Shown here: positions 7,417 through 20,334 of the stretch, one piece after another
How positions within the stretch are numbered: position 1 is the stretch's first letter
Layout: each line of letters begins with the position of its first letter
Origin: Burkholderiales bacterium
Lineage (GTDB): Bacteria > Pseudomonadota > Gammaproteobacteria > Burkholderiales > Burkholderiaceae_E
Length of the DNA: 64,000 nucleotides
Reading direction: 5' to 3'
Assembly (NCBI GenBank): GCA_020248665.1
Contig: JADCHE010000036.1
Coordinates: 1,996-65,995 of the forward strand
Translations under genes and position numbers: made by a program
The notes under the pieces: model-generated
Seen by the model: only the letters and a program-made list of their open reading frames with translations
Told to the model about the DNA's origin: nothing
The model's database searches: none

Positions 7417-8192
7417 GCGCAGACAAGCCGATCCTCAAGCTCGCCAACGTCGAGAGCGCCTACGGCCCGATCAAGGCGATCCGGGGCGTGAGCCTCGAGG
7501 TCTCGCCCGGCGAGATCGCGACCGTGCTCGGCTCCAACGGTGCAGGCAAGACCACGATCCTGAAGACGATCTCCGGCATCATCGACCCGCGCCGCGGCTC
7601 GATCGAGTTCAAGGGCGAGCCGATCACCGCGATGGACCCGGCGCTCGTCGTGCAGCGCGGGCTGTCCCACGTACCCGAGGGGCGCGAAGTGTTCCCGCTG
7701 CTGTCGGTGCGCGACAACCTGCTGATGGGTGCCTACACCCGCAAGGACCGCGACCAGGTCGCGCGCGACATGGAGACGGTGTTCGGCTATTTCCCGATCC
7801 TCAAGGAGCGGGCGACCCAGGACGCCGGCCTGCTGTCGGGCGGCCAGCAGCAGATGCTCTCGATCTCGCGCGCGATCATGGCCGCCCCCGACCTGATCCT
7901 GCTCGACGAGCCGAGCCTCGGCCTGTCGCCGCGCCTGACCAAGGAGATCTTCGAGATCATCGTCCGCATCAACCGCGAGCGCGGCACCTCAATGCTGCTG
8001 GTCGAGCAGAACGCGAACATGGCGCTGAACGCTGCCGACTTCGGTTACGTGCTCGAGAACGGACGGATCGTCATGGAGGACACCTGCGCCGCCCTTCGCG
8101 AGAAGGACGACATCAAGGAGTTCTATCTCGGCATGAAGGAACAGGGCGCGCGCGGCGAGCGTCGCTGGAAGAAGAAGAAGACCTGGCGATGA
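7413..8192 (+). CDS. ABC transporter ATP-binding protein (LivF family)
   Basis: Walker A GSNGAGKTT, signature LSGGQQQML, Walker B LILLDEPS. ATG at 7413 overlaps the livG-like stop. Confidence 0.85.
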   Translation: MSADKPILKLANVESAYGPIKAIRGVSLEVSPGEIATVLGSNGAGKTTILKTISGIIDPRRGSIEFKGEPITAMDPALVVQRGLSHVPEGREVFPLLSVRDNLLMGAYTRKDRDQVARDMETVFGYFPILKERATQDAGLLSGGQQQMLSISRAIMAAPDLILLDEPSLGLSPRLTKEIFEIIVRINRERGTSMLLVEQNANMALNAADFGYVLENGRIVMEDTCAALREKDDIKEFYLGMKEQGARGERRWKKKKTWR

Positions 8193-10069
8193 GCACCGTC
8201 CTCGACCCGCACCGCATCGTCCACGGCTCGCAGTTCGGATGGCAGCCGGAGGCGGTGCCGTTCAAGACCATCCCCGAGCTCTTCGCGCAGCGCGTGGCCG
8301 AGATGGGCGACGCGCCGATGATGCGCCAGAAGGACCTCGGCATCTGGCGCGCCTACAGCTGGCGCGAGGTCGCCACGATCGCCGCCGAGATCGGCGCCGG
8401 ACTGATCCGCCTCGGCTTCGAGCCGGGTGAGGTCGTCTCGGTGCTGTCGAACACCCGCCGCGAGTGGAGCTGGACCGACCTCGGCACGCTGTCGGCCGGC
8501 GGCGTGTGCAACGGCGTCTACCCGACCGACTCGGCCGCCCAGCTGCAGTACCTGTGCAGCGACTCGCGCTCGGTCTACCTGTTCGTCGAGAACGACGAGC
8601 AGCTCGACAAGTTCCTCGAGGTCCGCGACGCGCTGCCCGCGATCCGCAAGGCGATCGTGTTCGACATGGAGGGGCTCGCCTCCCTCGACGACCCGCAGGT
8701 GATCGGCCTCGACACGCTTCGCGAGCTCGGCCGCCTCGAGCTCAAGGAGCGCCCCGACACGATCGAGAAGCGCCGCGGCGTGCGCCAGCCCGGCGACGTC
8801 GCGATCCTCGTCTACACCTCGGGGACGACCGGCAAGCCGAAGGGCGCGATGATCACCCACGCCAACCTGTGCGCGGTGCTCTCGGGCCTGTCGACGAGCC
8901 TCTTCGAGGGCATGCCGCGCGGCGGCGAGCGCGTCGCGTTCCTGCCGATGTGCCACATCGCCGAGCGCATGATCGGCGGCTACGTGCCCCTGATGCGCGG
9001 CGAGGTGGTCAACTTCGTCGAGAACCCCGAGACGGTCTTCGAGAACGTCCGCGAGATCCAGCCGCACGTGTTCTTCGCGGTGCCCCGGGTCTGGGAGAAG
9101 ATCTATTCGCAGGTGATGATCACGCTCTCCGAGGCGGGCAAGGTGCAGCAGCTCGCCTACAGGTGGGCGCTCGGCGTCGGCGAGCGCGTCGCGAAGGTGC
9201 GGGCGGCCGGCGGCGAGCCGGGCGGGCTGCTGCGGCTGCAGTCGGCGCTCGCGGACTTCACGGTGCTCGACAACGTGCGGCGCATGACCGGCATGAGCCG
9301 CGTGCGCCTCGGCCTCACCGGCGCCGCGCCGATCTCGGCCGACCTGATCCGCTGGTACCAGTCGCTCGGCGTGCCGCTGCGCGAGGGCTGGGGCATGACC
9401 GAGACCTGCGGCGGCGGCACGGTCAGCCCGCGCAGGGGCGTGCGCCCCGGGAGCGTCGGCGTGCCCGGACCCGGCATCGAGATGAAGATCGCCGAGGGCA
9501 CCCACGAGATCCTGCTGCGCGGCCCGAACGTGATCCTCGGCTACCTGAACCAGCCCGAGAAGACGCGCGAGACGATCGACGCCGAGGGCTGGCTGCACAC
9601 CGGCGACGTCGGCCGGGTCGACGAGGACGGCTACTTCTACATCACCGACCGGATGAAGGACATCATCATCACGGCCGGCGGCAAGAACGTGACCCCGAGC
9701 GAGTGGGAGAACGAGCTCAAGTTCTCCCCGTACGTGACCGACGCGGTCGTCATCGGCGACAAGCGCGCCTACCTCACCGCGCTGGTGATGATCGACCAGG
9801 AGAACGTCGAGAAGTTCGCGCAGGACCACGACGTGCCGTTCACGAACTACGCGAGCCTCACGCGCGCCAAGGAGGTCCAGGACCTGATCTGGCGCGAGAT
9901 CGAGTCGGTGAACAGGAAGTTCGCCCGCGTCGAGCAGGTGAAGAAGTTCAGGCTGATCGAGCAGCAGCTGACTGCCGAGGACGAGGAGCTGACGCCGACG
10001 ATGAAGCTCAAGCGGGCGCTCGTCCAGAAGAAGTACGCCGAGCTGATCGAGGGGATGTACCGGGATTGA
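8189..10069 (+). CDS. AMP-dependent synthetase / long-chain-fatty-acid--CoA ligase
   Basis: AMP-binding motif ILVYTSGTTGKPKGAMITH, later GWLHTGDVGRVDEDGYFYITDRMKDIII. The start overlaps the livF-like stop (ATGA). Confidence 0.85.
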   Translation: MSTVLDPHRIVHGSQFGWQPEAVPFKTIPELFAQRVAEMGDAPMMRQKDLGIWRAYSWREVATIAAEIGAGLIRLGFEPGEVVSVLSNTRREWSWTDLGTLSAGGVCNGVYPTDSAAQLQYLCSDSRSVYLFVENDEQLDKFLEVRDALPAIRKAIVFDMEGLASLDDPQVIGLDTLRELGRLELKERPDTIEKRRGVRQPGDVAILVYTSGTTGKPKGAMITHANLCAVLSGLSTSLFEGMPRGGERVAFLPMCHIAERMIGGYVPLMRGEVVNFVENPETVFENVREIQPHVFFAVPRVWEKIYSQVMITLSEAGKVQQLAYRWALGVGERVAKVRAAGGEPGGLLRLQSALADFTVLDNVRRMTGMSRVRLGLTGAAPISADLIRWYQSLGVPLREGWGMTETCGGGTVSPRRGVRPGSVGVPGPGIEMKIAEGTHEILLRGPNVILGYLNQPEKTRETIDAEGWLHTGDVGRVDEDGYFYITDRMKDIIITAGGKNVTPSEWENELKFSPYVTDAVVIGDKRAYLTALVMIDQENVEKFAQDHDVPFTNYASLTRAKEVQDLIWREIESVNRKFARVEQVKKFRLIEQQLTAEDEELTPTMKLKRALVQKKYAELIEGMYRD

Positions 10070-10147
10070 TCCCGGCGGCGACACGATGATGGTTCGATCC
10101 CGCGGCACGGGCCCGGCCTGCGCCGCATCACACGAAGGAGACTGTTC

Positions 10148-11329
10148 ATGAACCTGATGCGAAGGACCTCGCTGGCACTGGGCATCGTCGCGATGTCCGT
10201 CGGGCTGGCACACGCCCAACAGGGCGTCGGCAAGGGCGAGATCGTCGTCGGCACGATCCAGGACCTGTCCGGCCCGATCGCCGCGTTCGGCAAGCAGGCC
10301 CGCAACGGCATGCAGCTGCGCGTCGAGGAGATCAACGAGCAGGGCGGCATCAACGGCCGCAAGATCAAGCTGATCGTCGAGGACAACGCCTACGATCCGC
10401 GCAAGGCGGTGCTCTCGGCGCAGAAGCTGGTCAACCAGGACAAGGTCTTCGCCGTGCTCGGCCACATGGGCACCGCGCACAACAACGCGGCGATGCCGAT
10501 CCAGTTCGAGAAGAACGTGATCAACTGGCTGCCGATCACCGCGGCCCGCGAGATGTACGAGCCCTTCCACAAGATGAAGTTCTCGTTCGCGGCGACGTAC
10601 TACGACCAGATGCGCGCCGGCCTGCCCGAGCTCGCCAAGCGCCAGAAGTTCTCCAAGCCCTGCATCATCTACCAGGACGACGAGTTCGGCCTCGAGGTGC
10701 TGCGCGGCGCCGAGTGGGCGCTGAAGTCGATGAACATGGACTTCGCCGAGAAGACCTCGTTCAAGCGCGGCTCGACCGACTTCTCGTCGCAGGTCGCGCG
10801 GATGCGGTCCGCCAACTGCGACCTGGTGGTGATGGGCACGATCATCCGCGAGACCATCGGCACGATCGGCGAGTCCCGCAAGACCGGCTTCTCGCCGATC
10901 TTCTTCGGCTCGAGCGCGCTCTACACCGACCTGATCCACAGGCTCGGCGGCAAGGCGATGGACGGCCTGTACGGCATGCACACCGCCGCGAACCCGTACC
11001 TCGACGACGCCGACGAGAAGGTCCGCTTCTGGGCGAACAAGTACAAGACGAAGTTCAGCGAGGACCCGACCGTCTTCTCGGCGTACGGCTACACGATCGT
11101 CGACATGTTCGCGCTCGCGGTGCGCGCGGCCGGTCCGACCCTGACGTCCGACTCGTTCGTGAAGGCGGCCGAGTCGGCCGCTTTCCCCGCGGACATGTTC
11201 GGGTCGCCCCCGATGAAGTTCAAGCCGAACTTCCGCCTCGGCAACGACCAGAGCCGGATGGCCCAGATCGTCAACGGCCGCTGGACCAAGGTGACCGACT
11301 ACCTGCCGGTGCCGCCCGAGAAGAAGTGA
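10148..11329 (+). CDS. ABC transporter substrate-binding protein (LivK/type-1 PBP family), secreted
   Basis: Signal peptide MNLMRRTSLALGIVAMSVGLAHA. IVVGTIQDLSGPIAAFGKQARNGMQLRVEEINEQGGINGRKI is typical of Leu/Ile/Val-binding-protein-like receptors. Confidence 0.85.
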   Translation: MNLMRRTSLALGIVAMSVGLAHAQQGVGKGEIVVGTIQDLSGPIAAFGKQARNGMQLRVEEINEQGGINGRKIKLIVEDNAYDPRKAVLSAQKLVNQDKVFAVLGHMGTAHNNAAMPIQFEKNVINWLPITAAREMYEPFHKMKFSFAATYYDQMRAGLPELAKRQKFSKPCIIYQDDEFGLEVLRGAEWALKSMNMDFAEKTSFKRGSTDFSSQVARMRSANCDLVVMGTIIRETIGTIGESRKTGFSPIFFGSSALYTDLIHRLGGKAMDGLYGMHTAANPYLDDADEKVRFWANKYKTKFSEDPTVFSAYGYTIVDMFALAVRAAGPTLTSDSFVKAAESAAFPADMFGSPPMKFKPNFRLGNDQSRMAQIVNGRWTKVTDYLPVPPEKK

Positions 11330-11341
11330 TCGAAGGCGAGG

Positions 11342-11362
11342 CCGTCCGCTGCATGCGGACGG
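11342..11362 (+). terminator. hairpin downstream of the binding-protein gene
   Basis: CCGTCCGC-tgcat-GCGGACGG followed by TT. It lies 13 nt after the stop at 11329. Confidence 0.4.
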
Positions 11363-11435
11363 TTGCATGAAGCGCGACCGCCGCCCGGGGGCGGCCGTTG
11401 TCGCTTCTGCCTCCGGCGCGCACCGGCGCCGCCCA

Positions 11436-12644: not shown

Positions 12645-14537
12645 TCAGCCTCGTTCCAGCTCGCGCGTCGCAGCGACCGCCCGCAGCAGCGGCCGCATCA
12701 GCGCCTCGGACCGGAAGGGCTTGTGCAGCACCGTCGTGTCCGGCCCGGCCCGCACGCGCAAAGGTTCGATGTCGGGCTCGCCGGTAATCAGCACTGCAGC
12801 CGGAGAATACCCCAGCTGCCTGCGGAGCTCCGCGATCGCGGCGATGCCGTTCGCACCGCCGGCGAGCCGGTAGTCGCAGACGATCGCGTCGACCGTCCGG
12901 TCCGAGTCGGCTTCCTTCTCCAGCACCTCGGACAGCGACACGCCTGCCGTAACCCGCACGCCCCATTCGGCCATCAGCCTCGCTACTGCGGTGCGGGCAT
13001 CACGGTCGTCCTCGATCAGCAGGACGTAGGCGCCGCGCAACGGCGAGAGGTCGGGCAGGGGCATGGCTTCCGGCACCGCCGGCGCCATCGGCACGTAGGC
13101 GTCGACCGTCACGGCGGGCACCGTGACCGTGAACCGCGAGCCCCGCCCCGGCACCGACGCCATCGTCACCGTGTGGTCGGGAAGCTGCTCGATGATACGC
13201 CCGACCAGGAAGAGCCCGAGCCCCAGTCCCCGCTCACGATCACGCTCCACGTTGTTGAGCTGGACATACGGCTTCCAGATCTCCTCGAACGCTTCGGGCG
13301 CGACGCCGATGCCCGTATCGAACACGTCGATCCGACACCGATCGCCACGCATCCGTGCGGCGATCAACACCCGCCCGGCCCGCGTGTCGTCGCTGTGGGT
13401 GAACTTCACCGCGTTGGCGACCAGGTTGCTGAGCACCCGCTGGATCGAGCGGGCGTCGGTTTGCAGCACCACCGGCGAGCGCGGCGGCCGCACCCGCAGT
13501 TCGACCCCGCGCTTGTCGGCCTCGCCCACGTATCCCCCGTACAGGTCGCGCAGCAATGGCCGGAGCTCGAGCGGACGGATGTCGAGCGCCTCCGTGCCGC
13601 TATCGTAACGCGCCGCCGTGAGGAGATGATCGAGCGTCGTGCCGAGCATCGTCAGCGCTGCCTCGGCGCGCTCTGCAGGCTCGCGTGCGCGTTCAAGGTC
13701 GTCCGCCTGCAGCCGGGACCGAGCGACGTCGAGGTGGGCGACGGCAGCGGCCATGGGTTGGCGGAGGTCGTGGCTCACGGCGGCGATGAGTCGCGTCTTC
13801 TGGCGGTCCGCTTCTTCCGCGGCTGCCTGGCGCTCGCGGGCTTCGAGCCGAGCCGCTTCGGTCCGGCGGCGTTGATGGAAAAGCTCACGCTCGCGTGACT
13901 CGAGCAGTCGGCACAAGACCATGCCAAACACGTTCGCGAACGACAAGTAGAGGCAGCTTCTCAAGAACTCGCTACCGCCAATGACCATCGGAGCCCAAGC
14001 GACTGCCAAGACGCTTACCGCCCAACCAACGAGCGCGGACACCGAAATCGGCAGTCGCAAGAAGGCATAGTGCAAAAAAAGGCCGATCATGACTGCCGGG
14101 GAGGCTTGCACCGCCACAGCCCGCCCGCCCTCACCGGGAAGAGCGAGCAGCAACACGATTCCTCCTAAGCCAAACGCGCTCGTCCCCGCGACTACGAGAA
14201 CGTAGTTGCTGCTCGAAATGCCCCGCCGAAACCAAAGACAAGCACCGACGGATCCTAAGCCGAGAGCGAGAACCGCGCGGATCACCAACGCGGCAGCCGT
14301 GTGCTCCTCACTCGTCCACGAGACAACAAGGAATGCGCTGAACAGCGTTGACGCGCCTATGGCTGCGCACGCAGCGAGTCGGAACGCGGACTCGCGGAAC
14401 TGGCAAAGGAACTCAAGCTCGACATCTGCCGCAAGGAACCTTCTTCCTGCGACCCGCGGGTCTGCAAGCGTCTTCAAGTGCTCTCCATAGTCTGAAAGGC
14501 AGATCGGATGCGGTCTTCTGAACACAGTGATCACCAC
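12645..14537 (-). CDS. hybrid sensor histidine kinase / response regulator with a multi-helix membrane input domain
   Basis: H-box AAVSHDLRQPM, HATPase N/G boxes (LSNLVANAVKFT, FDTGIGV, GLGLGLFLV), and a C-terminal receiver (VLLIEDD...DAIVCDYRL...HKPF). GTG start. The 5' third is A/T-richer than the 3' part. Confidence 0.85.
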   Translation of the reverse strand: MVITVFRRPHPICLSDYGEHLKTLADPRVAGRRFLAADVELEFLCQFRESAFRLAACAAIGASTLFSAFLVVSWTSEEHTAAALVIRAVLALGLGSVGACLWFRRGISSSNYVLVVAGTSAFGLGGIVLLLALPGEGGRAVAVQASPAVMIGLFLHYAFLRLPISVSALVGWAVSVLAVAWAPMVIGGSEFLRSCLYLSFANVFGMVLCRLLESRERELFHQRRRTEAARLEARERQAAAEEADRQKTRLIAAVSHDLRQPMAAAVAHLDVARSRLQADDLERAREPAERAEAALTMLGTTLDHLLTAARYDSGTEALDIRPLELRPLLRDLYGGYVGEADKRGVELRVRPPRSPVVLQTDARSIQRVLSNLVANAVKFTHSDDTRAGRVLIAARMRGDRCRIDVFDTGIGVAPEAFEEIWKPYVQLNNVERDRERGLGLGLFLVGRIIEQLPDHTVTMASVPGRGSRFTVTVPAVTVDAYVPMAPAVPEAMPLPDLSPLRGAYVLLIEDDRDARTAVARLMAEWGVRVTAGVSLSEVLEKEADSDRTVDAIVCDYRLAGGANGIAAIAELRRQLGYSPAAVLITGEPDIEPLRVRAGPDTTVLHKPFRSEALMRPLLRAVAATRELERG

Positions 14538-14844
14538 AATCGGAAGTCAGCATGTTTCGTTGTTGTTGCATGGCGACGAACCGTCGACAATCAGCCATCA
14601 GGTCAGTTGACTTTCCCTCAATGTCTTGGGATTCGATTGCTCGAAACCCTAGAATTCTGTTAACTTTTTTGTGCGCAAGGGTTTGCAGTCTAGGAGTAGG
14701 CAGATGCTCTACCCTCTGTAGCCAGAAGGAGGTTCCGGCAGCTCTAGATCCGTGTGACCGCCGGCATGGTTGAACGACATACAAGGCGGTGGGACTTTGG
14801 ACGTGAAGAGACACAGCGCGAAGATTGCTTCGTACCACGAGAGC

Positions 14845-15573
14845 ATGAGCGCGCCGAAACCGGCGAAGCGACTCGAACTCCCCTTTCGGGTTCGGATTGT
14901 CCGTAATGACGCTCAACTTGAGCAGGCTGTTCGCATTCGCGCCGAAGCCTACTCGCGACACGTGCCGACGCTAGGGGAGGTCCTAGCTGAGCCCGAACCC
15001 GTTGACCGCAACCCAGATTCGATCGTCTTCTTGGCTGAAGGAAAGGTCGACGAGGAACCCCTCGGGACGATTCGCATTCAGACTAATTTCGTTTCTCCGC
15101 TATCGATCGAAAAGTCTGTCGAACTGCCGGAGCAATTCCGCGGCCGCCCGCTAGCAGGCGTATCTCGGCTTGGCGTCAAGGCGGGAGCGCGAGGACGATT
15201 AGTCAAGCTTGCGCTGTTCAAGGCGATGCACCGCTACTGCTTGGCAAAGCAGGTTGAATGGGTTCTGATCGGCGCTCGGCCGCCCTTAGACAAGGAATAC
15301 CTTGATCTGGGGTTCTTCGACGTCTTTCCCGATCGAGAGCCGCGGCCGCTGCTTTCTGCGAACGGCATCGCGCATCGCATTCTTGCGTTTGATGTTCAAG
15401 GCGCCGAAAGACACGCACTTGCTTCGAATCACCCGCTATACAGCTTCATGTTCCGCCGGTTTCATCCAGACATAGAGATCTTCGCCTCTGTAAGCAACAT
15501 GTGGAGTCGTCCCCGGCTTAGCCGGCGTCACTCCCTCACGGAACTTCAAGAACTGATTCCACCGGTGGTCTAG
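14845..15573 (+). CDS. GNAT-fold N-acyltransferase resembling N-acyl amino acid synthases / OlsB-type acyltransferases (Acetyltransf_5-like)
   Basis: QAVRIRAEAYSRHV...DSIVFLAEGKVDEEPLGTIRIQ, then AGVSRLGVKAGARGR...LFKAMHRYCLAKQVEWVLIGARPPLDKEYLDLGF. This matches the R-x-R..(V/A)(F/Y) plus SR(L/F) pattern of that family as I remember it. The start is uncertain (ATG 14845; ORF track TTG 14770). Confidence 0.6.
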   Translation: MSAPKPAKRLELPFRVRIVRNDAQLEQAVRIRAEAYSRHVPTLGEVLAEPEPVDRNPDSIVFLAEGKVDEEPLGTIRIQTNFVSPLSIEKSVELPEQFRGRPLAGVSRLGVKAGARGRLVKLALFKAMHRYCLAKQVEWVLIGARPPLDKEYLDLGFFDVFPDREPRPLLSANGIAHRILAFDVQGAERHALASNHPLYSFMFRRFHPDIEIFASVSNMWSRPRLSRRHSLTELQELIPPVV

Positions 15574-15675
15574 CGCCGCCGGATTCCCGGCAATCAACTG
15601 TCCGAGTCCGCCTGCAGCCACGCACCACGAACCGCTACATCGACTGTCGCGATTGCTTCCTCGCGCGGCATATGC

Positions 15676-16311
15676 TTAGCCAATAAGTGGAACAAAACGT
15701 CCAGTGGTCCGCCGGTACTGCTTGTACGCATCTCCGTTCGGTGAACCGGAAATCTCCGCTTCCTCAGTGAGCGCCGCGCTGCGATACCAGAGGTACATCG
15801 CCGCCAGTGCCATCCAAGACACTGTGGTCGGCACCCCCACTGCGATGCCGCCCCACATCAATAGGTAAGCTGAATAGATGGGATGCCGAACCCACCTATA
15901 CGGCCCTGACGTCATCAACGCACTGGGTGCGCCAGGCGTGAAGGCGATGTTGGGTGAGACGGTGCCGTGGGTAGCGAGTGAGTACCTAAAGAGTCCAAGA
16001 GCTCCCCACAGCATCGCAAGTCCGAGCAAGGCATTCCAACTCGGGTAGCTCGAACCGTAGACGAGAAGAACCACTGCATCCGCGATAGCCAAAGCATTGC
16101 CTGTTCGCCGAAGCCACTCGCGCTTTGTCGGCCTATCGCGCGGAACAACGAAGCGAGACCTGCGCGCCCGGCTAAAGACAAAGAGACACGTAAGGAAGGA
16201 CGCGAACAAAATCAGGGACATAGCCAGGTCGTGAGTCTTGTGGCGTGCAGTAATCAGAACGATCAGCAAAGAGACAGCGGCCTGGACCGCTGTTCGCCCC
16301 GGACCGCCCAT
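15676..16311 (-). CDS. isoprenylcysteine carboxyl methyltransferase (ICMT)/phospholipid methyltransferase-family membrane methyltransferase
   Basis: Multi-helix membrane protein with the family motif GPYRWVRHPIYSAYLLMWGGIAV and the C-terminal EE..L....G..Y..Y pattern (TEEAEISGSPNGDAYKQYRRTTGRF). Confidence 0.75.
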   Translation of the reverse strand: MGGPGRTAVQAAVSLLIVLITARHKTHDLAMSLILFASFLTCLFVFSRARRSRFVVPRDRPTKREWLRRTGNALAIADAVVLLVYGSSYPSWNALLGLAMLWGALGLFRYSLATHGTVSPNIAFTPGAPSALMTSGPYRWVRHPIYSAYLLMWGGIAVGVPTTVSWMALAAMYLWYRSAALTEEAEISGSPNGDAYKQYRRTTGRFVPLIG

Positions 16312-16390
16312 TCGTCGTCGTTACGCGCGTCAAGACAGTGAACGACCGCTAGTGTACTGAAGCCGAACTACGTCGAGGCAGGTTAGATCC

Positions 16391-19369
16391 ATGTTCGCAC
16401 GCGCGCTACGGCGTATGTCGAACTTCGTCTCACGAACAATCGCAGCGATCTCTATGCTGGCGGTTGTGACCGGCGTTGGCTTGGCTCACCTGCTTTTATC
16501 GGGCCCTGACTCTTCATACACGGGCACGCGCGTTGAGATACGTCACGCTGGAGGGCTCGACAGCAAGGCTGGCCTCTCGGACGCTCTCGCAGTTCTGAGA
16601 TCGACCACGGCCATCGCAGGCGAAGCTCGAACGAACCGCTCCGAGCTTCCTTACTGGCTACTTGCAGATGTGCCGATCCCTCGGGACGGAGACGCACGGT
16701 CGGTTCACCTGCCGTCACGACACGCGCAGTCGGTAAGGATCTGGTTACTCGACGAAGACGGCGAGGTCTTGATCACTGGAAGTGCCGTTCGCGGCAGTGA
16801 CTCCGGTGACATCAAGGCCCGACGCGCAGGGTTCAGCTTCGACATTCCGACTTTCTCCCGCGCGGTCACCGTTGTTGCTCGGATCGAATCAACAGGGCCT
16901 GCGCGTCTCTCCGTCGAGATCTGGAAAACGGCTGATATTGTCGCCGCCTCCCGCCAGTTCGATCAATCGGGCGGAGTTCTGTTCGGCAGCCTTCTAATGG
17001 TCGCCGCCTTCGGCACACTGACGTCGATGCTTACCCGAGACTGGGTATTCTTTATCTTCGCGGCGTGGACCATTGCAAGCCTCCGATTCGCGTCTTACTC
17101 GAGCGGATGGGACCTCGCATGGCTGGGCCTCCCAACGGCAGAAGACTATCCACGGCTGGTTCGCAATATCCCATTGGCGATCTACGCGGTCCTAACGGTG
17201 GCGCTGTTTCATGGCATCTTCAAGAAAGACATCGCTCGCCTCCGAGTTGGTTCGCACATCCGGGTTTTCGTTGTCTTGGCTGGAGCACTCCTGTTAGCTG
17301 CCCCAGTTTTGCCGCACCAGCATTTTCTTCCGGTCCTTTGGTTAGTTAGTGGGCCTTGCTTGGCGTATCTGATGTGGACGACGCTTCGCATCATCTCAGG
17401 AACCGGGTCGTCGGCCGCGATTTGGTACTGTGCTTCTTGGCTAACCACACTCGCTGGATCAGTTGGAGAAATTGCCTTCGCGTCGGGGATCGTTCCGAAG
17501 ATGCCCGTACTGATAAACAGCCTATCTGGAGCTGTGTTCTCTACGTTGCTTGCGGGAATATCTCTTGCCGAACGGATCAACTCGGAAAGAATGCGGCGCG
17601 TATCTGCCCAGACGCGAGCAGTCGAGGTGTTGAAGCGCTTCCAAGAGAACTACAACTCGATGCCGATCGGACTCTTCAGCCTCGACTCGAGAGGTGTGAT
17701 TCGTCTCCACAATCCGTCCTTCATGCAGATGTTCGCCCTAAAGCGTGAACCAGACTCGGAGGTAGAGCTCGAGATCGACTACCTGCTTGGGGAAGGAACC
17801 TTCTCGAGACTTCAGGATGCAGCGGCACACAGCAGCGGCAATGACATCGAGCTACATTTACCGAGCGACCAAGGTGCTGGGCGTTGGTTCCTCGCGAGGG
17901 TCACTCGCAAAGGCGAGTCGATAGAGGGCTCTGTTCAAGATATCACGACACGTAAGCTGGCAGAAGGGCAGCTCAAACACCTCGTTGATCACGACCACCT
18001 AACTGGCCTACTAAATCGTCGAGGACTAGAGGGGACTCTCAGTCGAGCAATCAGCAGTGTAGGTGAGGGCGGCCGATGCGCGATCGCGTATGTCGACCTC
18101 GATCGCTTCAAGCTAATCAACGATCTGCACGGGCACGGCACGGGTGACGCACTGATTCAGCAAACCGCCCGACGACTGAAGTCTGCGGTACGTGCGAGGG
18201 ATCATGTTGCTCGCTTCGCCGATGGTTTTGTTGTCATATTCATGGACTGCCCCGAACACGTCGTCGTCGGTCTGACCGAGCGTATCCGCGAAGTCGTCGG
18301 TGAGTTGCCGTTCGAGGTCAACGGCAAGGGCCTGAACATGACCGTCAGCGTCGGCGTGGTCTCGATCGACCCGTCGATGTCGTCGGTCGACGCGATGGCG
18401 GCGGCAGACCGGGCGTGCAACGAGGCGAAGGCGCGAGGCCGAAATTGTGTCGTTCGACTGACCGACAAGGATGCGGCGCTGCGGATGCACCTCGAGGAAC
18501 TCAAGGTCGTCGCGGACCTGCAGAAGCGGGTGCAGACGGAACGCTACTTCCTCGAGTTCCAGCCGATCGTGGCGCTGCAGTCGGCGATGGCGTCGACGAG
18601 CTACGAGGTCCTGATCCGGATGCGCGGCGAAGGCGGCCGGGTCATTCCGCCGGGCAAGTTCATCGGGGCGGCCGAGCGCAACGGCCTGATGTCGCAGATC
18701 GACCGGTGGGTGCTTCGCAGCACGCTCGAGTGGCTGGACGATCACCCGGACCATCGGGACCGGCTCGCGTTCGCCACGATCAACATCAGCGGTGCGTCGC
18801 TCAACGACATCCGCTTCGTCGACGATGCGTTCGCGATGATCGCCGAGCATCCGCTCGCGATGCCGAAGCTCTGCTTCGAGATCACGGAGAGCGTGGCGCT
18901 GCACGACCTGGGGTCGACGCGGCGCTTCTTCGATCGGGTGAGGATGTACGGGAGCAAGCTGGCGCTCGACGACTTCGGCGCGGGCTACACCTCCTTCAAT
19001 TACCTGAAGGAGATCCCGGCGGACTTCATCAAGATCGACGGCAGCTTCGTCAAGGAGATCAACCGGAACCCGGCCAACTACGCGATCACGAGGATGATCG
19101 TCGACCTGACGCACGAACTGGGCATGCGGAGCATCGCGGAATGGGCGGAGACGCCGGACACGATCGCGTCCCTGATCCAGCTGGGCGTCGACTACGGCCA
19201 GGGCTTCGGCCTCGCGCGTCCGATGGCTCCGGAGATCGTGACGGCGGCCACTTCGGGCGGAGCGCTCGTCAACGACCCGCTGGTGCTGACCCTGCTGCAG
19301 GACGGCACGGCGGGGGCCGCGATCGGAGCTGCGACGGGTCAAGGGCGCCGCCGCCAGATCGCTCGCTGA
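16391..19369 (+). CDS. 7TMR-DISM-type receptor with PAS, a degenerate GGDEF domain and an EAL domain (probable c-di-GMP phosphodiesterase)
   Basis: N-terminal periplasmic domain plus about 7 helices; a PAS-like segment; a GGDEF domain whose signature reads RFADGF instead of GGDEF (about 18210-18236). The EAL domain has YEVLIR, DDFGAGYTSFNYL, KIDGSFV, and AEWAETPD...GVDYGQGF. Confidence 0.85.
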   Translation: MFARALRRMSNFVSRTIAAISMLAVVTGVGLAHLLLSGPDSSYTGTRVEIRHAGGLDSKAGLSDALAVLRSTTAIAGEARTNRSELPYWLLADVPIPRDGDARSVHLPSRHAQSVRIWLLDEDGEVLITGSAVRGSDSGDIKARRAGFSFDIPTFSRAVTVVARIESTGPARLSVEIWKTADIVAASRQFDQSGGVLFGSLLMVAAFGTLTSMLTRDWVFFIFAAWTIASLRFASYSSGWDLAWLGLPTAEDYPRLVRNIPLAIYAVLTVALFHGIFKKDIARLRVGSHIRVFVVLAGALLLAAPVLPHQHFLPVLWLVSGPCLAYLMWTTLRIISGTGSSAAIWYCASWLTTLAGSVGEIAFASGIVPKMPVLINSLSGAVFSTLLAGISLAERINSERMRRVSAQTRAVEVLKRFQENYNSMPIGLFSLDSRGVIRLHNPSFMQMFALKREPDSEVELEIDYLLGEGTFSRLQDAAAHSSGNDIELHLPSDQGAGRWFLARVTRKGESIEGSVQDITTRKLAEGQLKHLVDHDHLTGLLNRRGLEGTLSRAISSVGEGGRCAIAYVDLDRFKLINDLHGHGTGDALIQQTARRLKSAVRARDHVARFADGFVVIFMDCPEHVVVGLTERIREVVGELPFEVNGKGLNMTVSVGVVSIDPSMSSVDAMAAADRACNEAKARGRNCVVRLTDKDAALRMHLEELKVVADLQKRVQTERYFLEFQPIVALQSAMASTSYEVLIRMRGEGGRVIPPGKFIGAAERNGLMSQIDRWVLRSTLEWLDDHPDHRDRLAFATINISGASLNDIRFVDDAFAMIAEHPLAMPKLCFEITESVALHDLGSTRRFFDRVRMYGSKLALDDFGAGYTSFNYLKEIPADFIKIDGSFVKEINRNPANYAITRMIVDLTHELGMRSIAEWAETPDTIASLIQLGVDYGQGFGLARPMAPEIVTAATSGGALVNDPLVLTLLQDGTAGAAIGAATGQGRRRQIAR

Positions 19370-19373
19370 CGGC

Positions 19374-19404
19374 GCTTGCCGGCAGACCGCGAGGTCCGGC
19401 AAGC
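19374..19404 (+). terminator. hairpin after the GGDEF/EAL gene
   Basis: GCTTGCCGG-13 nt-CCGGCAAGC, 5 nt after the stop. There is no U-tract. Confidence 0.35.
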
Positions 19405-19488
19405 ACGCTCGCGCCCGCGCAGCCCGCGAGACGGGGCAATCTCGCTCAGGCGATATGATTGGGCTCCCCGGTCGCGCCGAGTCGCCCC

Positions 19489-20334
19489 ATGTCATCGCCC
19501 TCCCTGCCCGCCGCGGTGCCCGCCGCGCTCTATGACCATCCCGTCGCGGCCGCGCTCCTGAACGAGGCGCTCACGCTCCTCGGGGACGGTATCTCCGCCG
19601 AGGCGATCGAGGCGGCTGGCGTTTCCGCGGGGCTTCCCTGCGGCCCGCTGGCGGTCCTCGATGCCGTGTCCCTGGACGTCGTGGATCACGCGCTGCACGC
19701 TCAGATGGACGCGCCGGGGCACGGGCATTCGCATGGCCACGGACACGCCCATGGTCACGACCACCACCACGACCACGCGCACGGCCACGACCACTCGCAC
19801 GATCACGGGCATCGTCACGATCACGGTCACTCGCACGACGCGGGCCACGGGCACGGGCACGACTACGGCGACCACTCGCACGACCACGGCCATGCGCACG
19901 CCCCGGCCCCGAAGCGCCCCGCCCTCCCGGAATCCGCGATCTACGTCGTCGAGAAGATGGCGCACGGCTACAAGCGGTCCGGGCGCGGGGCGGGCAAAGG
20001 CTTCTACGATCACGAGGCGCAGCCGCCGGCGCTCTGGTCGGGCCTGAAGACCTTCGAGCGCCGCTCGAAGCAACTGCCCGCCGACGACGTCCGCGATCGC
20101 CTCGTCTACGCCGCACTGTCGGCCGCGCTCGGCGTCGACGCATCCATCCCCCTGCCGCCGGGCTTCGCCCAGGCGTTCGGCGCGGCGGTGCCCGCGAACG
20201 CCACCGAGGCGGTCGCCCGCGTCGGCGCGCTCGGCGCGCCGGCGTTCACGACCCGCGCCGCCGCGCTCGCCGAGCGCTTCGGGCCGCGCTTCGAACCGTC
20301 CGGCGAGGCGCTCGCCCGGCTCGAGTCGCGCTGA
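19489..20334 (+). CDS. stand-alone 3-hydroxyacyl-CoA dehydrogenase C-terminal-domain protein with an internal His-rich insert
   Basis: LNEALTLLGDGISAEAIEAAGVSAGLPCGPLAVLDAVSLDVV and VVEKMAHGYKRSGRGAGKGFYDH resemble the C-terminal helical domains of FadB/FadJ-type enzymes. There is no Rossmann N-domain. I prefer ATG 19489 over TTG 19459. Confidence 0.65.
   Translation: MSSPSLPAAVPAALYDHPVAAALLNEALTLLGDGISAEAIEAAGVSAGLPCGPLAVLDAVSLDVVDHALHAQMDAPGHGHSHGHGHAHGHDHHHDHAHGHDHSHDHGHRHDHGHSHDAGHGHGHDYGDHSHDHGHAHAPAPKRPALPESAIYVVEKMAHGYKRSGRGAGKGFYDHEAQPPALWSGLKTFERRSKQLPADDVRDRLVYAALSAALGVDASIPLPPGFAQAFGAAVPANATEAVARVGALGAPAFTTRAAALAERFGPRFEPSGEALARLESR
19717..19899 (+). repeat. His-rich low-complexity coding tract (HGH/DH dipeptide repeats)
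   Basis: Translates to GHGHSHGHGHAHGHDHHHDHAHGHDHSHDHGHRHDHGHSHDAGHGHGHDYGDHSHDHGHAH. It is built from reiterated CAC/CAT-GGC/GAC codons. Confidence 0.9.

Follow-up and report, generated by a model that had tools for sequence, protein, structure and literature searches.

The window analysed here is a 64,000-nt stretch of DNA from a Burkholderiales bacterium (assembly GCA_020248665.1, contig JADCHE010000036.1, positions 1,996-65,995, forward strand). It contains four neighbouring genes, which are listed below with the regions between them in window coordinates.

12645..14537, minus strand: hybrid sensor histidine kinase (Pfam HisKA, HATPase_c and Response_reg; hydropathy scan)
14538..14844: intergenic, between the divergent kinase and FeeM-like genes, low in G+C and presumed to be a shared promoter region
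14845..15573, plus strand: FeeM/LuxI-fold GNAT acyltransferase-like gene, 242 aa (Pfam FeeM, 35.1 bits; Foldseek top match 2G0B)
15574..15675: spacer of 102 bp between two convergent stop codons (from the sequence)
15676..16221, minus strand (most likely extent): ICMT/PEMT-superfamily integral-membrane SAM-dependent methyltransferase, 181 aa (Pfam PEMT, 31.6 bits; Foldseek 4A2N)
16222..16390: intergenic, between the divergent methyltransferase and 7TMR-DISM genes (from the sequence)
16391..19369, plus strand: 7TMR-DISM sensor with PAS, degenerate GGDEF and intact EAL domains (Pfam EAL 207, GGDEF 116 and 7TMR-DISM_7TM 36.8 bits)

The layout is as described in the initial annotation of this DNA, i.e. 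the FeeM-like and methyltransferase genes are convergent and each is divergently paired with a sensor gene, the hybrid kinase on one side and the 7TMR-DISM protein on the other; the peptide motifs quoted there are all present in the translations. Since they are convergent, the two enzyme genes are not co-transcribed, and the promoter region of the methyltransferase gene is common to the DISM gene and not to the FeeM-like gene. The kinase/FeeM-like intergenic region holds one weak sigma-70-like match (14626-14655, plus strand) and no above-chance promoter, and a search for a shared operator revealed no 9-12-mer common to at least 4 of the 11 orthologous kinase/FeeM intergenic regions. No riboswitch or sRNA was found in the module (Rfam, E up to 1; a single miRNA match is due to chance), no terminator-like hairpin was detected in the 102-bp convergent spacer, and two terminator-like minus-strand matches assigned to the methyltransferase/DISM intergenic region (16293-16274 and 16204-16187) are within chance expectation. 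The G+C content of the module is low (0.58 versus about 0.72), which prompted us to consider a recent horizontal island. A simple explanation of this kind was rejected, since synteny with unchanged flanking genes holds throughout the clade and the low GC3 is kept in almost all lineages.

The product of 14845..15573 matches Pfam FeeM (PF21926) with 35.1 bits (cut-off 27, E 1.4e-8) over residues 28-172, the alignment covering profile positions 2-150 of 158, and the same profile is matched by 34 of 44 diverse family members. The closest PDB structure to its AlphaFold model (mean pLDDT 83.6) is FeeM (2G0B; Foldseek E 9e-9, TM 0.70-0.73 on the target), after which come generic GNATs and the AHL synthases BjaI and RpaI. 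The acyltransferase family named in the initial annotation is thereby confirmed. The protein resembles FeeM and the other N-acyl amino acid synthases (NAS) in being a small, soluble, single-domain GNAT of the same Pfam family, and differs from them in that its sequence is only marginally similar to that of FeeM when compared directly (a 40-residue profile match at E 0.4) and that it has an approximately 70-residue, family-specific C-terminal extension with a conserved HPDI motif. It shares the GNAT subfold of LuxI-type AHL synthases such as LasI, EsaI and BjaI (TM 0.56 to BjaI) but has no match to Autoind_synth (PF00765), and a LuxR-type gene is absent over about 6 kb. Translation could begin at more than one site: from ATG 14845 the protein has 242 aa, the start adopted in public gene calls is GTG 14797 (258 aa), and the ORF opens at TTG 14770. 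Homologues (n = 168) are almost always annotated as hypothetical, as are nearly all members of the 722 clusters that make up the family at 50% identity.

The window protein departs from its wider family in strand beta4, where the family consensus AE[IV]TRL is replaced by LAGVSRL, with Gly105 in place of the glutamate; sister clades carry Tyr, Phe, His or Gln at this position. For residue-level alignment LasI, its sequence checked against 1RO5, was used as a proxy for FeeM. With a probability of only 10.6%, hhalign places the Gly105 column opposite LasI Glu101, and in the same alignment R77 corresponds to the Arg of LasI GCWRIL, the retained beta4 S/T-R pair corresponds to LasI S103-R104, and the RY(C/S) of helix 3 is aligned. 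We infer that the Gly105 column is equivalent to Glu95 of FeeM. The catalytic glutamate is Glu95 in FeeM and Glu103 in Nas354, where the E103A mutant is inactive (PMC4897644), and classical NAS catalysis by the window protein is therefore uncertain.

Loss of the beta4 glutamate across the window's clade, while conservation remains very high, raises the question of whether this FeeM-like protein is a small-molecule synthase at all. It could instead work alongside the sensors as a pseudo-enzyme or ligand-binding protein, or its GNAT activity could be directed at a protein, for example the sensor or its receiver domain, and both its constant adjacency to sensors and the many generic protein and histone GNATs that score nearly equal to FeeM in the fold search would fit such a role. 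We consider this improbable, the least probable of the explanations discussed here. The Pfam assignment is specifically to FeeM, the best structures are FeeM and then AHL synthases, and the superfamily motif residues R32, D54, R77, R108 and K126 are all retained. In addition, Glu-bearing relatives show the same sensor pairing, so the pairing predates the loss of the glutamate.

The convergent gene encodes a protein that exceeds the Pfam cut-off for PEMT (PF04191; 31.6 bits, cut-off 25) and falls just below that for ICMT (PF04140; 22.3 bits, cut-off 24). Of the profiles suggested in the initial annotation, PEMT was the one reached; apart from Autoind_synth, the FeeM-like protein also gave no match to NCBIfam TIGR03694 (E up to 0.1; cut-off 111.95 bits), which is faint in two of ten relatives (17.8 and 20.4 bits), nor to Pfam Acetyltransf_5 (PF13444, OlsB-type). 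The NCBIfam equivalog for protein-S-isoprenylcysteine O-methyltransferase (NF040696) gave 39.4 bits against the 160 required, and there is a weak match to MddA; the methyl acceptor may be O, N or S. The methyltransferase model (pLDDT 85.2) has a multi-helix membrane fold with 4A2N and 5VG9 as top Foldseek matches, the closest being Ma-ICMT (4A2N) over the full length with a TM of 0.69. The cofactor motifs GPYRWVRHPIY and EE...Y..Y are retained when the protein is aligned to 4A2N, and the residues of the SAM-binding motif (RHPxY, EE...Y..Y...P) are invariant or nearly so (alignment A5). Taken together, these data agree with the earlier description of an ICMT/PEMT-family membrane methyltransferase. 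Ma-ICMT and Ste14 (4A2N, 5V7P) methylate a carboxylate on a lipid-anchored substrate, and the window protein shares their fold and conserved motifs, unlike them scoring below the PF04140 and NF040696 cut-offs; to our knowledge, a prenylated-protein substrate is not expected in bacteria.

The methyltransferase ORF reaches position 16311 on the minus strand (15676..16311), and its first 30 codons look non-coding. Comparison with an 85%-identical orthologue gave a dN/dS of 0.146 for codons 31-211 and 1.58 for codons 1-30, which establishes that the gene is real and constrained and indicates that its start is most likely Met31, giving 15676..16221 and 181 aa. Its orthologues start at the position equivalent to Met31.

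The better score of the methyltransferase with PEMT, a phospholipid N-methyltransferase model, than with ICMT, together with weak matches to Acetyltransf_5 in 3 of 44 members of the FeeM-like family (best E 1e-4), would be compatible with a module that makes a structural membrane aminolipid. Here OlsB-like lyso-aminolipid chemistry would serve envelope remodelling, the sensors would act as regulators, and the methyltransferase would modify the head group, much as ornithine lipid is N-methylated by OlsG, an enzyme reported to be a relative of phospholipid N-methyltransferases (PMC12971839). We regard this as improbable. The window protein itself is without the Acetyltransf_5 match, no OlsA/PlsC-type O-acyltransferase gene is found in or beside the module, here or at the other loci examined, and a dedicated sensor beside the gene in nearly every lineage would not be expected of such a system.

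Both sensor proteins have membrane-embedded input regions. The N-terminal ~220 residues of the kinase are polytopic, with 5-6 hydrophobic helices and no large periplasmic loop by hydropathy, and are followed by HisKA (SHDLRQP H-box at residue 254), HATPase_c and receiver domains; the NCBIfam model of the NahK/ErcS-type C-terminal region gave 229 bits, below its cut-off. An Hpt domain is lacking, and no gene for a cognate response regulator adjoins the kinase gene. The DISM protein consists of a periplasmic DISMED2-like region, 7TM, PAS, GGDEF and EAL. Its EAL motifs (EVL, N, EITES, DDFGAGY, KID, EWAE and QG) are intact in the window and in 35 of 35 orthologues, whereas the window GGDEF is degenerate (ARF-ADGF, with a one-residue deletion) and the diguanylate cyclase motif is absent; more distant DISM orthologues keep GGDEF. 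On the basis of these motifs the protein is predicted to be a c-di-GMP phosphodiesterase, as was called in the initial annotation.

To place the module in a wider context, about 125 loci of the FeeM-like family were retrieved, and in nearly every locus examined a polytopic membrane sensor adjoins the FeeM-like gene. Within the Burkholderiales clade an orthologue of the divergent kinase (26-62% identity) is present in 33 of 44 loci, some of the others ending at a contig edge, and nearly all loci that extend far enough have a 7TMR-DISM gene downstream of the FeeM-like gene. The window's clade thus has both sensor types, the hybrid kinase and the 7TMR-DISM c-di-GMP protein. One Paraburkholderia locus (P. 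graminis) and one Caballeronia megaplasmid locus pair the FeeM-like gene with a 7TMR-DISM GGDEF-EAL gene, with no kinase within 6 kb. In a distant subfamily, a hybrid kinase in convergent orientation, with HisKA, HATPase and REC domains behind a polytopic N-terminus, is found in 34 of the 38 loci with at least 2 kb downstream, the remaining neighbours being unrelated. The FeeM-like gene is the best conserved of the module: relative to a related locus (L001), identities are 75% for the FeeM-like protein, 66% for the DISM protein, 62% for the kinase and 48% for the methyltransferase. A sensor domain common to the kinases of both subfamilies was considered and rejected, the hhalign probability for the N-terminal regions being 0.1%. 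As these N-termini have no detectable homology between the subfamilies, the repeated pairing could reflect recruitment unrelated to a shared ligand class.

The initial annotation had treated the acyltransferase and methyltransferase as a unit that should recur beside sensors in other genomes, and had named failure to do so as grounds for refutation. The pair does recur, in 10 distinct syntenic loci besides the window out of the about 125 family loci, all from a single Burkholderiales subclade that is monophyletic on the FeeM tree and has FeeM-like identities to the window of at least 63%. It does not recur beyond this: no methyltransferase gene is present in 34 further Burkholderiales loci, in the Paraburkholderia and Caballeronia loci that were examined, or in any of the 80 distant loci, so that as a conserved unit the pair largely fails. 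An apparent truncation of the methyltransferase at one locus (L041) proved to be a gene-calling difference, the DNA being identical to that of L042, and small ORFs in the FeeM-DISM gap of three methyltransferase-less loci (L034, L027 and L021) were treated as spurious because they have no Pfam match and overlap the DISM N-terminus. In our preferred reading the methyltransferase gene is functional and entered by a single insertion in the ancestor of this subclade.

This distribution bears directly on the proposal that the two enzymes form a dedicated pathway to an N-acyl amino acid methyl ester (NAME-like), which would be the signal for the flanking sensors. Both enzyme families are confirmed, the genes are adjacent in the 10 syntenic loci with the methyltransferase under purifying selection, and the methyltransferase is present in exactly those loci where FeeM-like position 105 is Gly or Ala. 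Methyl-ester lipid signals exist in Burkholderiales (PMC8578825), and the statement in the initial annotation that N-acyl alanine methyl esters are known without a firmly assigned pathway is correct: according to a 2024 paper, candidate genes for their synthases had yet to be found (PMC11580390). However, the pair occurs in a single subclade only, and loci that lack the methyltransferase still have sensors beside the FeeM-like gene; a methyl ester is therefore not the ancestral ligand. Further, the correlation at position 105 is a single phylogenetic event, the convergent genes form no operon, the next-closest homologues of the methyltransferase sit in unrelated lipid or polyketide clusters, and the ICMT/PEMT superfamily also carries out N- and S-methylation, the PEMT model and, weakly, MddA being matched here. 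We therefore view the two-gene pathway as unlikely; methyl esterification of an N-acyl amino acid by this enzyme is chemically sensible, but a guess.

The same data can be read as a methyltransferase that has no part in the FeeM-like function, having entered a long intergenic gap as a lineage-specific insertion and acting on another membrane substrate or serving the 7TMR-DISM protein. Such an origin would fit its confinement to one monophyletic subclade, its fast evolution (35-48% identity in the C-terminal half, versus 63-75% for the FeeM-like gene), the presence of only 3 close homologues in 5.8 billion proteins, the spread of its homologues over varied lipid clusters, and a direction of transcription that opposes the FeeM-like gene and diverges from the DISM gene. 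Its retention at the exact position across the subclade under purifying selection, and an arrival that coincides with a change at the putative active-site position of the FeeM-like protein, both speak against this reading, and overall we judge it somewhat unlikely.

Our preferred reading, to which we assign a probability of roughly 0.4, is that of a four-gene signalling module in which the conserved core is the FeeM/LuxI-fold acyltransferase-like protein with its polytopic membrane sensors, and methylation is an optional add-on. The outputs of the sensor partners vary between kinase and phosphodiesterase and only membrane-embedded input regions are common to them, which makes it more likely that the acyltransferase-like protein is tied to sensor input, i.e. 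to a ligand. For this reason the likeliest identity of the locus, judged from gene content, is an undescribed lipid produce-and-sense cassette, a putative lipid-signal synthase with its receptors to which methylation was added late and optionally. The cytoplasmic GNAT would acylate an amino acid or a related amine, with acyl-ACP or acyl-CoA as the fatty acyl donor, and the amphiphilic product would enter or cross the membrane by partitioning. There it would be read by the membrane-embedded inputs of the hybrid kinase and the 7TMR-DISM EAL phosphodiesterase, coupling lipid production to a phosphorelay and to c-di-GMP breakdown. The most economical role for the ICMT-fold enzyme, and the least supported part of the scheme, would be methylation of the free carboxylate of the lipid product, which would neutralize its charge and alter diffusibility or receptor recognition. 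The initial interpretation is thus partly supported, its general produce-and-sense idea gaining from the presence of membrane sensors beside the FeeM-like gene in nearly every locus examined.

Several known systems offer precedents for parts of this scheme. In CqsA/CqsS, LuxM/LuxN and RpfF/RpfC (DSF), the signal synthase gene lies beside that of a polytopic hybrid HisKA-HATPase-REC kinase with no periplasmic sensor domain, and the DSF relay (RpfF/RpfC/RpfG) ends in a c-di-GMP phosphodiesterase. The window likewise places a candidate synthase beside a hybrid kinase with a multi-helix sensor; it differs in that the candidate is a GNAT rather than a PLP enzyme, a LuxM-type enzyme or a crotonase, and in that its phosphodiesterase is itself a membrane sensor and is without a receiver domain. 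Another NAS-like gene tied genetically to a signalling or sorting system is that of the PEP-CTERM/exosortase-associated acyltransferase (TIGR03694), which lies near the PrsK/PrsR two-component genes, but no exosortase or PEP-CTERM genes occur in the loci examined and the window protein lacks the TIGR03694 match. For FeeM itself we know of no reported linkage to membrane sensors, in contrast to the window family. Among the papers searched, none of relevance joined FeeM with a histidine kinase, and none linked an N-acyl amino acid, quorum sensing and a sensor kinase.

PhcB of Ralstonia is a soluble class I-type methyltransferase and not an ICMT-fold enzyme. In this betaproteobacterium the PhcB-made signal, methyl 3-hydroxymyristate, is a carboxyl-methylated fatty acid that is sensed by the membrane kinase PhcS as a quorum signal (PMC8578825), an ester where an amide is proposed for the window. 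The NAMEs of Roseovarius tolerans are of the product class proposed in the initial annotation; their producers are Alphaproteobacteria, whereas the window module is confined to Burkholderiales, and NAMEs reportedly play no part in AHL signalling. Known NAS make N-acyl amino acids in Escherichia coli from host acyl-ACP with no partner enzyme, and some of them, Nas343 and Nas354, carry a fused PilZ domain that binds c-di-GMP, a precedent for a link to this messenger (PMC4897644).

An extension of the preferred reading is that the whole family consists of synthases of unrecognized membrane-active acyl-amine autoinducers, each beside its own polytopic receptor, with the ICMT-fold enzyme of the window's subclade making a methyl ester. 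We think this quite unlikely in full; if true, it would provide the first genetically defined NAME-type route and, for an ICMT homologue from bacteria, the first substrate that is a small molecule.

For most 7TMR-DISM sensors and polytopic hybrid kinases we know of no ligand, and the physiological role of N-acyl amino acid synthases has been described as unclear (PMC4897644). The FeeM-like family beside its sensors offers a concrete, testable pairing of candidate ligand synthase and candidate receptor, and cultured carriers (Quisquiliibacterium transsilvanicum DSM 29781, Zeimonas arvi CC-CFT501 and Paraburkholderia graminis PHS1) make such testing practical, while the lineage-specific methyltransferase provides a natural comparison of modules with and without it. 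Q. transsilvanicum has all four genes, whereas the FeeM-like orthologue is of the Tyr type in Z. arvi and of the Glu type in P. graminis (pPHS1_P). If confirmed, the module would represent a new chemical language that feeds into phosphorelay and c-di-GMP control in the Burkholderiales.

At the module the G+C content drops to 58%, against about 72% in the surrounding genome, and four genes lie there between flanking fatty-acid degradation genes:

12645..14537, minus strand: hybrid histidine kinase (Pfam HisKA, HATPase_c, Response_reg)
14845..15573, plus strand: FeeM-like protein, 242 aa (Pfam FeeM, N-acyl amino acid synthase, 35.1 bits, cut-off 27)
15676..16311, minus strand: small membrane methyltransferase ORF (Pfam PEMT, 31.6 bits, cut-off 25)
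16391..19369, plus strand: DISM protein, 992 aa (Pfam 7TMR-DISM_7TM, PAS, GGDEF, EAL)

The gene pair flanked by sensors described in the initial annotation is thus confirmed, with the methyltransferase coordinates corrected, and all of the peptide strings quoted there are found in the translations. No LuxR-type gene lies within ~6 kb of the module. Third-position G+C is ~0.45-0.75 in the module genes versus 0.83-0.94 in the genes for acyl-CoA dehydrogenase and enoyl-CoA hydratase on either side (window 14000-19400 and the fetched loci L001-L044); the low values recur in almost every lineage despite clade-wide synteny, a pattern not expected from simple amelioration following an ancient transfer. 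The product of 19459-20334(+) has 3HCDH (3-hydroxyacyl-CoA dehydrogenase C-terminal, residues 29-87) as its sole Pfam domain and carries a ~60-residue histidine-rich HGH/HDH run, its relatives aligning only over ~150-290, downstream of the run. Very long antisense ORFs, such as that of 1081 aa at 8123-11368(-) opposite acyl-CoA synthetase and binding-protein genes, are high-G+C artefacts and not genes.

[quoted passage not shown] The placement stands for Pfam FeeM but not for the TIGR03694, LuxI and OlsB-type models also named for it, which the protein falls outside in Pfam and NCBIfam profile searches, with no NCBIfam match at all.

The ICMT/PEMT-family call for its neighbour is likewise borne out. 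The protein exceeds the PEMT cut-off, lies just below that of ICMT (22.3 bits, cut-off 24) and has sub-threshold NCBIfam matches only (isoprenylcysteine O-methyltransferase, 39.4 against 160, and MddA); its model (pLDDT 85.2) matches Ma-ICMT (4A2N) over the whole length (TM 0.69) and, second, a eukaryotic ICMT, and its cofactor motifs GPYRWVRHPIY and EE...Y..Y...P align with those of Ma-ICMT. By sequence, however, the best PDB match lies outside the ICMTs, in the C-terminal part of Tam46 from Arabidopsis (8XKU chain G, E 4.8e-9); Tam46 is a subunit in the Ycf2-FtsHi import motor of the chloroplast. In comparison with an 85%-identical orthologue (locus L128), codons 31-211 are under purifying selection (dN/dS 0.146, the neighbouring DISM gene giving 0.135), with a value of 1.58 for codons 1-30. 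Because of this contrast, and because orthologues begin at the equivalent of Met31, the gene is real and constrained, and its extent is most likely 15676..16221 (181 aa). A homologue search returned only three close homologues, and the next-closest, which are remote, occur in three unrelated contexts:

L125, 5001-5579: between two amine-oxidase/phytoene-desaturase-like genes
L126, 2289-5594: as three paralogues on either side of or close to a gene for a UbiA prenyltransferase
L127, 3065-3679: within a KS/ACP/ApeI cluster of aryl-polyene-like type

Bacterial lipid tailoring may therefore make wide use of small ICMT-fold enzymes.

The FeeM-like gene is the most conserved of the module. Its product has 168 homologues in a 5.8-billion-protein collection, nearly all annotated as hypothetical and carrying PF21926. 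When each species was represented by a single genome, 40 loci were found, nearly all from Burkholderiales; among the carriers are the cultured strains Quisquiliibacterium transsilvanicum DSM 29781 and Zeimonas arvi CC-CFT501. When 44 loci were compared by tblastn with the window proteins, the FeeM-like gene was followed by a DISM-GGDEF-EAL gene in essentially every locus extending far enough, a divergent hybrid kinase was detected in 33, and one and the same pair of genes, for acyl-CoA dehydrogenase and enoyl-CoA hydratase, bounded the whole module. The methyltransferase lies beside the FeeM-like gene only in L001-L006 and in three distinct metagenomic loci, L041, L043 and L044 (L042 is the same DNA as L041 and was counted once); in L128 it adjoins the DISM gene and the contig ends before the FeeM-like gene. 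Wherever both genes occur, the FeeM-like proteins are at least 63% identical to that of the window, and loci lacking the methyltransferase have a FeeM-to-DISM gap of 190-670 bp that holds no credible ORF. In a neighbour-joining tree of FeeM-like proteins, exactly the loci with the methyltransferase form one clade (10/10 tips), which indicates a single insertion. Since the methyltransferase is confined to this clade and its relatives sit in unrelated contexts, the acyltransferase-methyltransferase pair is a clade-specific elaboration and not the conserved unit. The earlier reading is thus supported in part: its enzyme families and sensor flanking are upheld, but the pair itself, checked by gene neighbourhood, recurs in one monophyletic subclade only, and a strict two-gene methyl-ester pathway is improbable. 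Two of the loci are irregular, perhaps through frameshifts or gene-calling gaps in the assemblies: in L043 (7557-10540) gene calling splits the DISM gene in two (131 and 839 aa), and in L044 (6822-8759) ~1.9 kb after the FeeM-like gene has no called gene, yet contains a 185-aa methyltransferase ORF.

The beta4 strand of the wider family reads AE[IV]TRL, and at the position of its conserved Glu the window protein has Gly105. An hhalign comparison with LasI (sequence verified against 1RO5), with a probability of only 10.6%, places the family Glu on LasI Glu101 and also aligns the LuxI/FeeM-superfamily positions R77, S/T107-R108 and R130-Y131. Thies et al. found Glu103 of Nas354, the structural equivalent of FeeM Glu95, essential for activity (PMC4897644); the window protein, by this 10.6% placement, lacks the catalytic Glu. 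It retains R32, D54, R77, R108, K126, H207 and D209. A substitute catalytic residue is possible, with E65 (LAExK) and H207/D209 (the family-specific HPDI motif) as candidates, as are a different chemistry or a protein that is not a catalyst; a non-catalytic or protein-acylating role is very unlikely. Among 108 pooled sequences position 105 is Glu in 36, Tyr/Phe/His/Trp, Gln or Asn in 43 and Gly/Ala in 26, and across loci with known gene context Gly/Ala occurs in exactly those that carry the methyltransferase. That the methyltransferase is functionally unrelated to the FeeM-like gene is rather unlikely.

The EAL catalytic motifs of the DISM protein are all kept in 35/35 aligned orthologues. The GGDEF motif is degenerate in the wider clade of the window, where it has lost one residue and reads ADGF, ADSF or ADAF, and intact in more distant Burkholderiales orthologues. 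The window protein is thus predicted to be a phosphodiesterase, as initially annotated, the decay marking the change from a predicted bifunctional enzyme to one with phosphodiesterase activity alone. In the kinase an H-box and a receiver domain are present and an Hpt domain is absent by Pfam; no response regulator adjoins it.

When 1.84 billion cluster representatives were searched with a profile, the family grew to 722 members (E up to 1e-3), 227 of them with E up to 1e-30. A distant subfamily was sampled as 80 metagenomic loci encoding proteins 35-47% identical to the window protein, and here a convergent histidine kinase lies just downstream in 34 of the 38 loci with at least 2 kb of downstream sequence. 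All four kinases studied closely have the hybrid layout (HisKA, HATPase, REC); their N-terminal 200-330 residues include several hydrophobic helices and match no Pfam domain. The methyltransferase is found in 0/80 of these loci and a DISM-EAL gene in 1/80, the remaining neighbours being unrelated (MdoG, a solute-binding protein, a Suv3-like helicase). By tblastn the FeeM-like gene is also present on 13 Paraburkholderia and Caballeronia megaplasmids; in the two loci examined, including that of the conjugative P. graminis plasmid pPHS1_P, a DISM-GGDEF-EAL gene follows, with no kinase within 6 kb. The pair on pPHS1_P (strain PHS1, L129, 199144-202997), of a Glu-type FeeM-like gene and a 7TMR-DISM GGDEF-EAL gene, adjoins a second diguanylate cyclase, a transposase and imuA/Y-family polymerase genes. 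As it lies on a conjugative plasmid near a transposase, cultured strains carry this two-gene core in mobile form.

Family-wide, then, the constant neighbour is a polytopic membrane sensor, and the output varies: a kinase, a c-di-GMP enzyme or both. Because the sensor is constant while the output varies, we infer a link between the FeeM-like protein and the input of these sensors. The kinase membrane regions of the two subfamilies have no detectable homology (hhalign probability 0.1%), which weakens this argument and is compatible with ligand diversification. That the product is a structural aminolipid, in a family with this sensor adjacency, is very unlikely.

We favour, at a probability of about 0.4, a produce-and-sense cassette. 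With acyl-ACP or acyl-CoA as donor, the GNAT would form an acyl-amide lipid, this product would be the sensor ligand, acting on kinase and phosphodiesterase through their membrane-embedded input regions, and in the subclade of the window the ICMT-fold enzyme would methylate it, most simply at the carboxylate. CqsA/CqsS, LuxM/LuxN and RpfF/RpfC/RpfG are pairs of a synthase with a polytopic hybrid kinase. Their architecture resembles that of the FeeM-like gene and kinase. NAS-PilZ fusions are a precedent for a link between NAS and c-di-GMP (PMC4897644), as is Ralstonia PhcB/PhcS for a kinase-sensed methyl-ester lipid signal (PMC8578825). For the biosynthesis of N-acyl alanine methyl esters, a 2024 paper reports that no candidate synthase genes had been found (PMC11580390), in agreement with the initial annotation that these compounds have no firmly assigned two-gene pathway, and no paper describing this cassette was found in the literature searched. 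The family-wide coupling of a FeeM-like protein to a membrane sensor is a more interesting finding than the enzyme pair.
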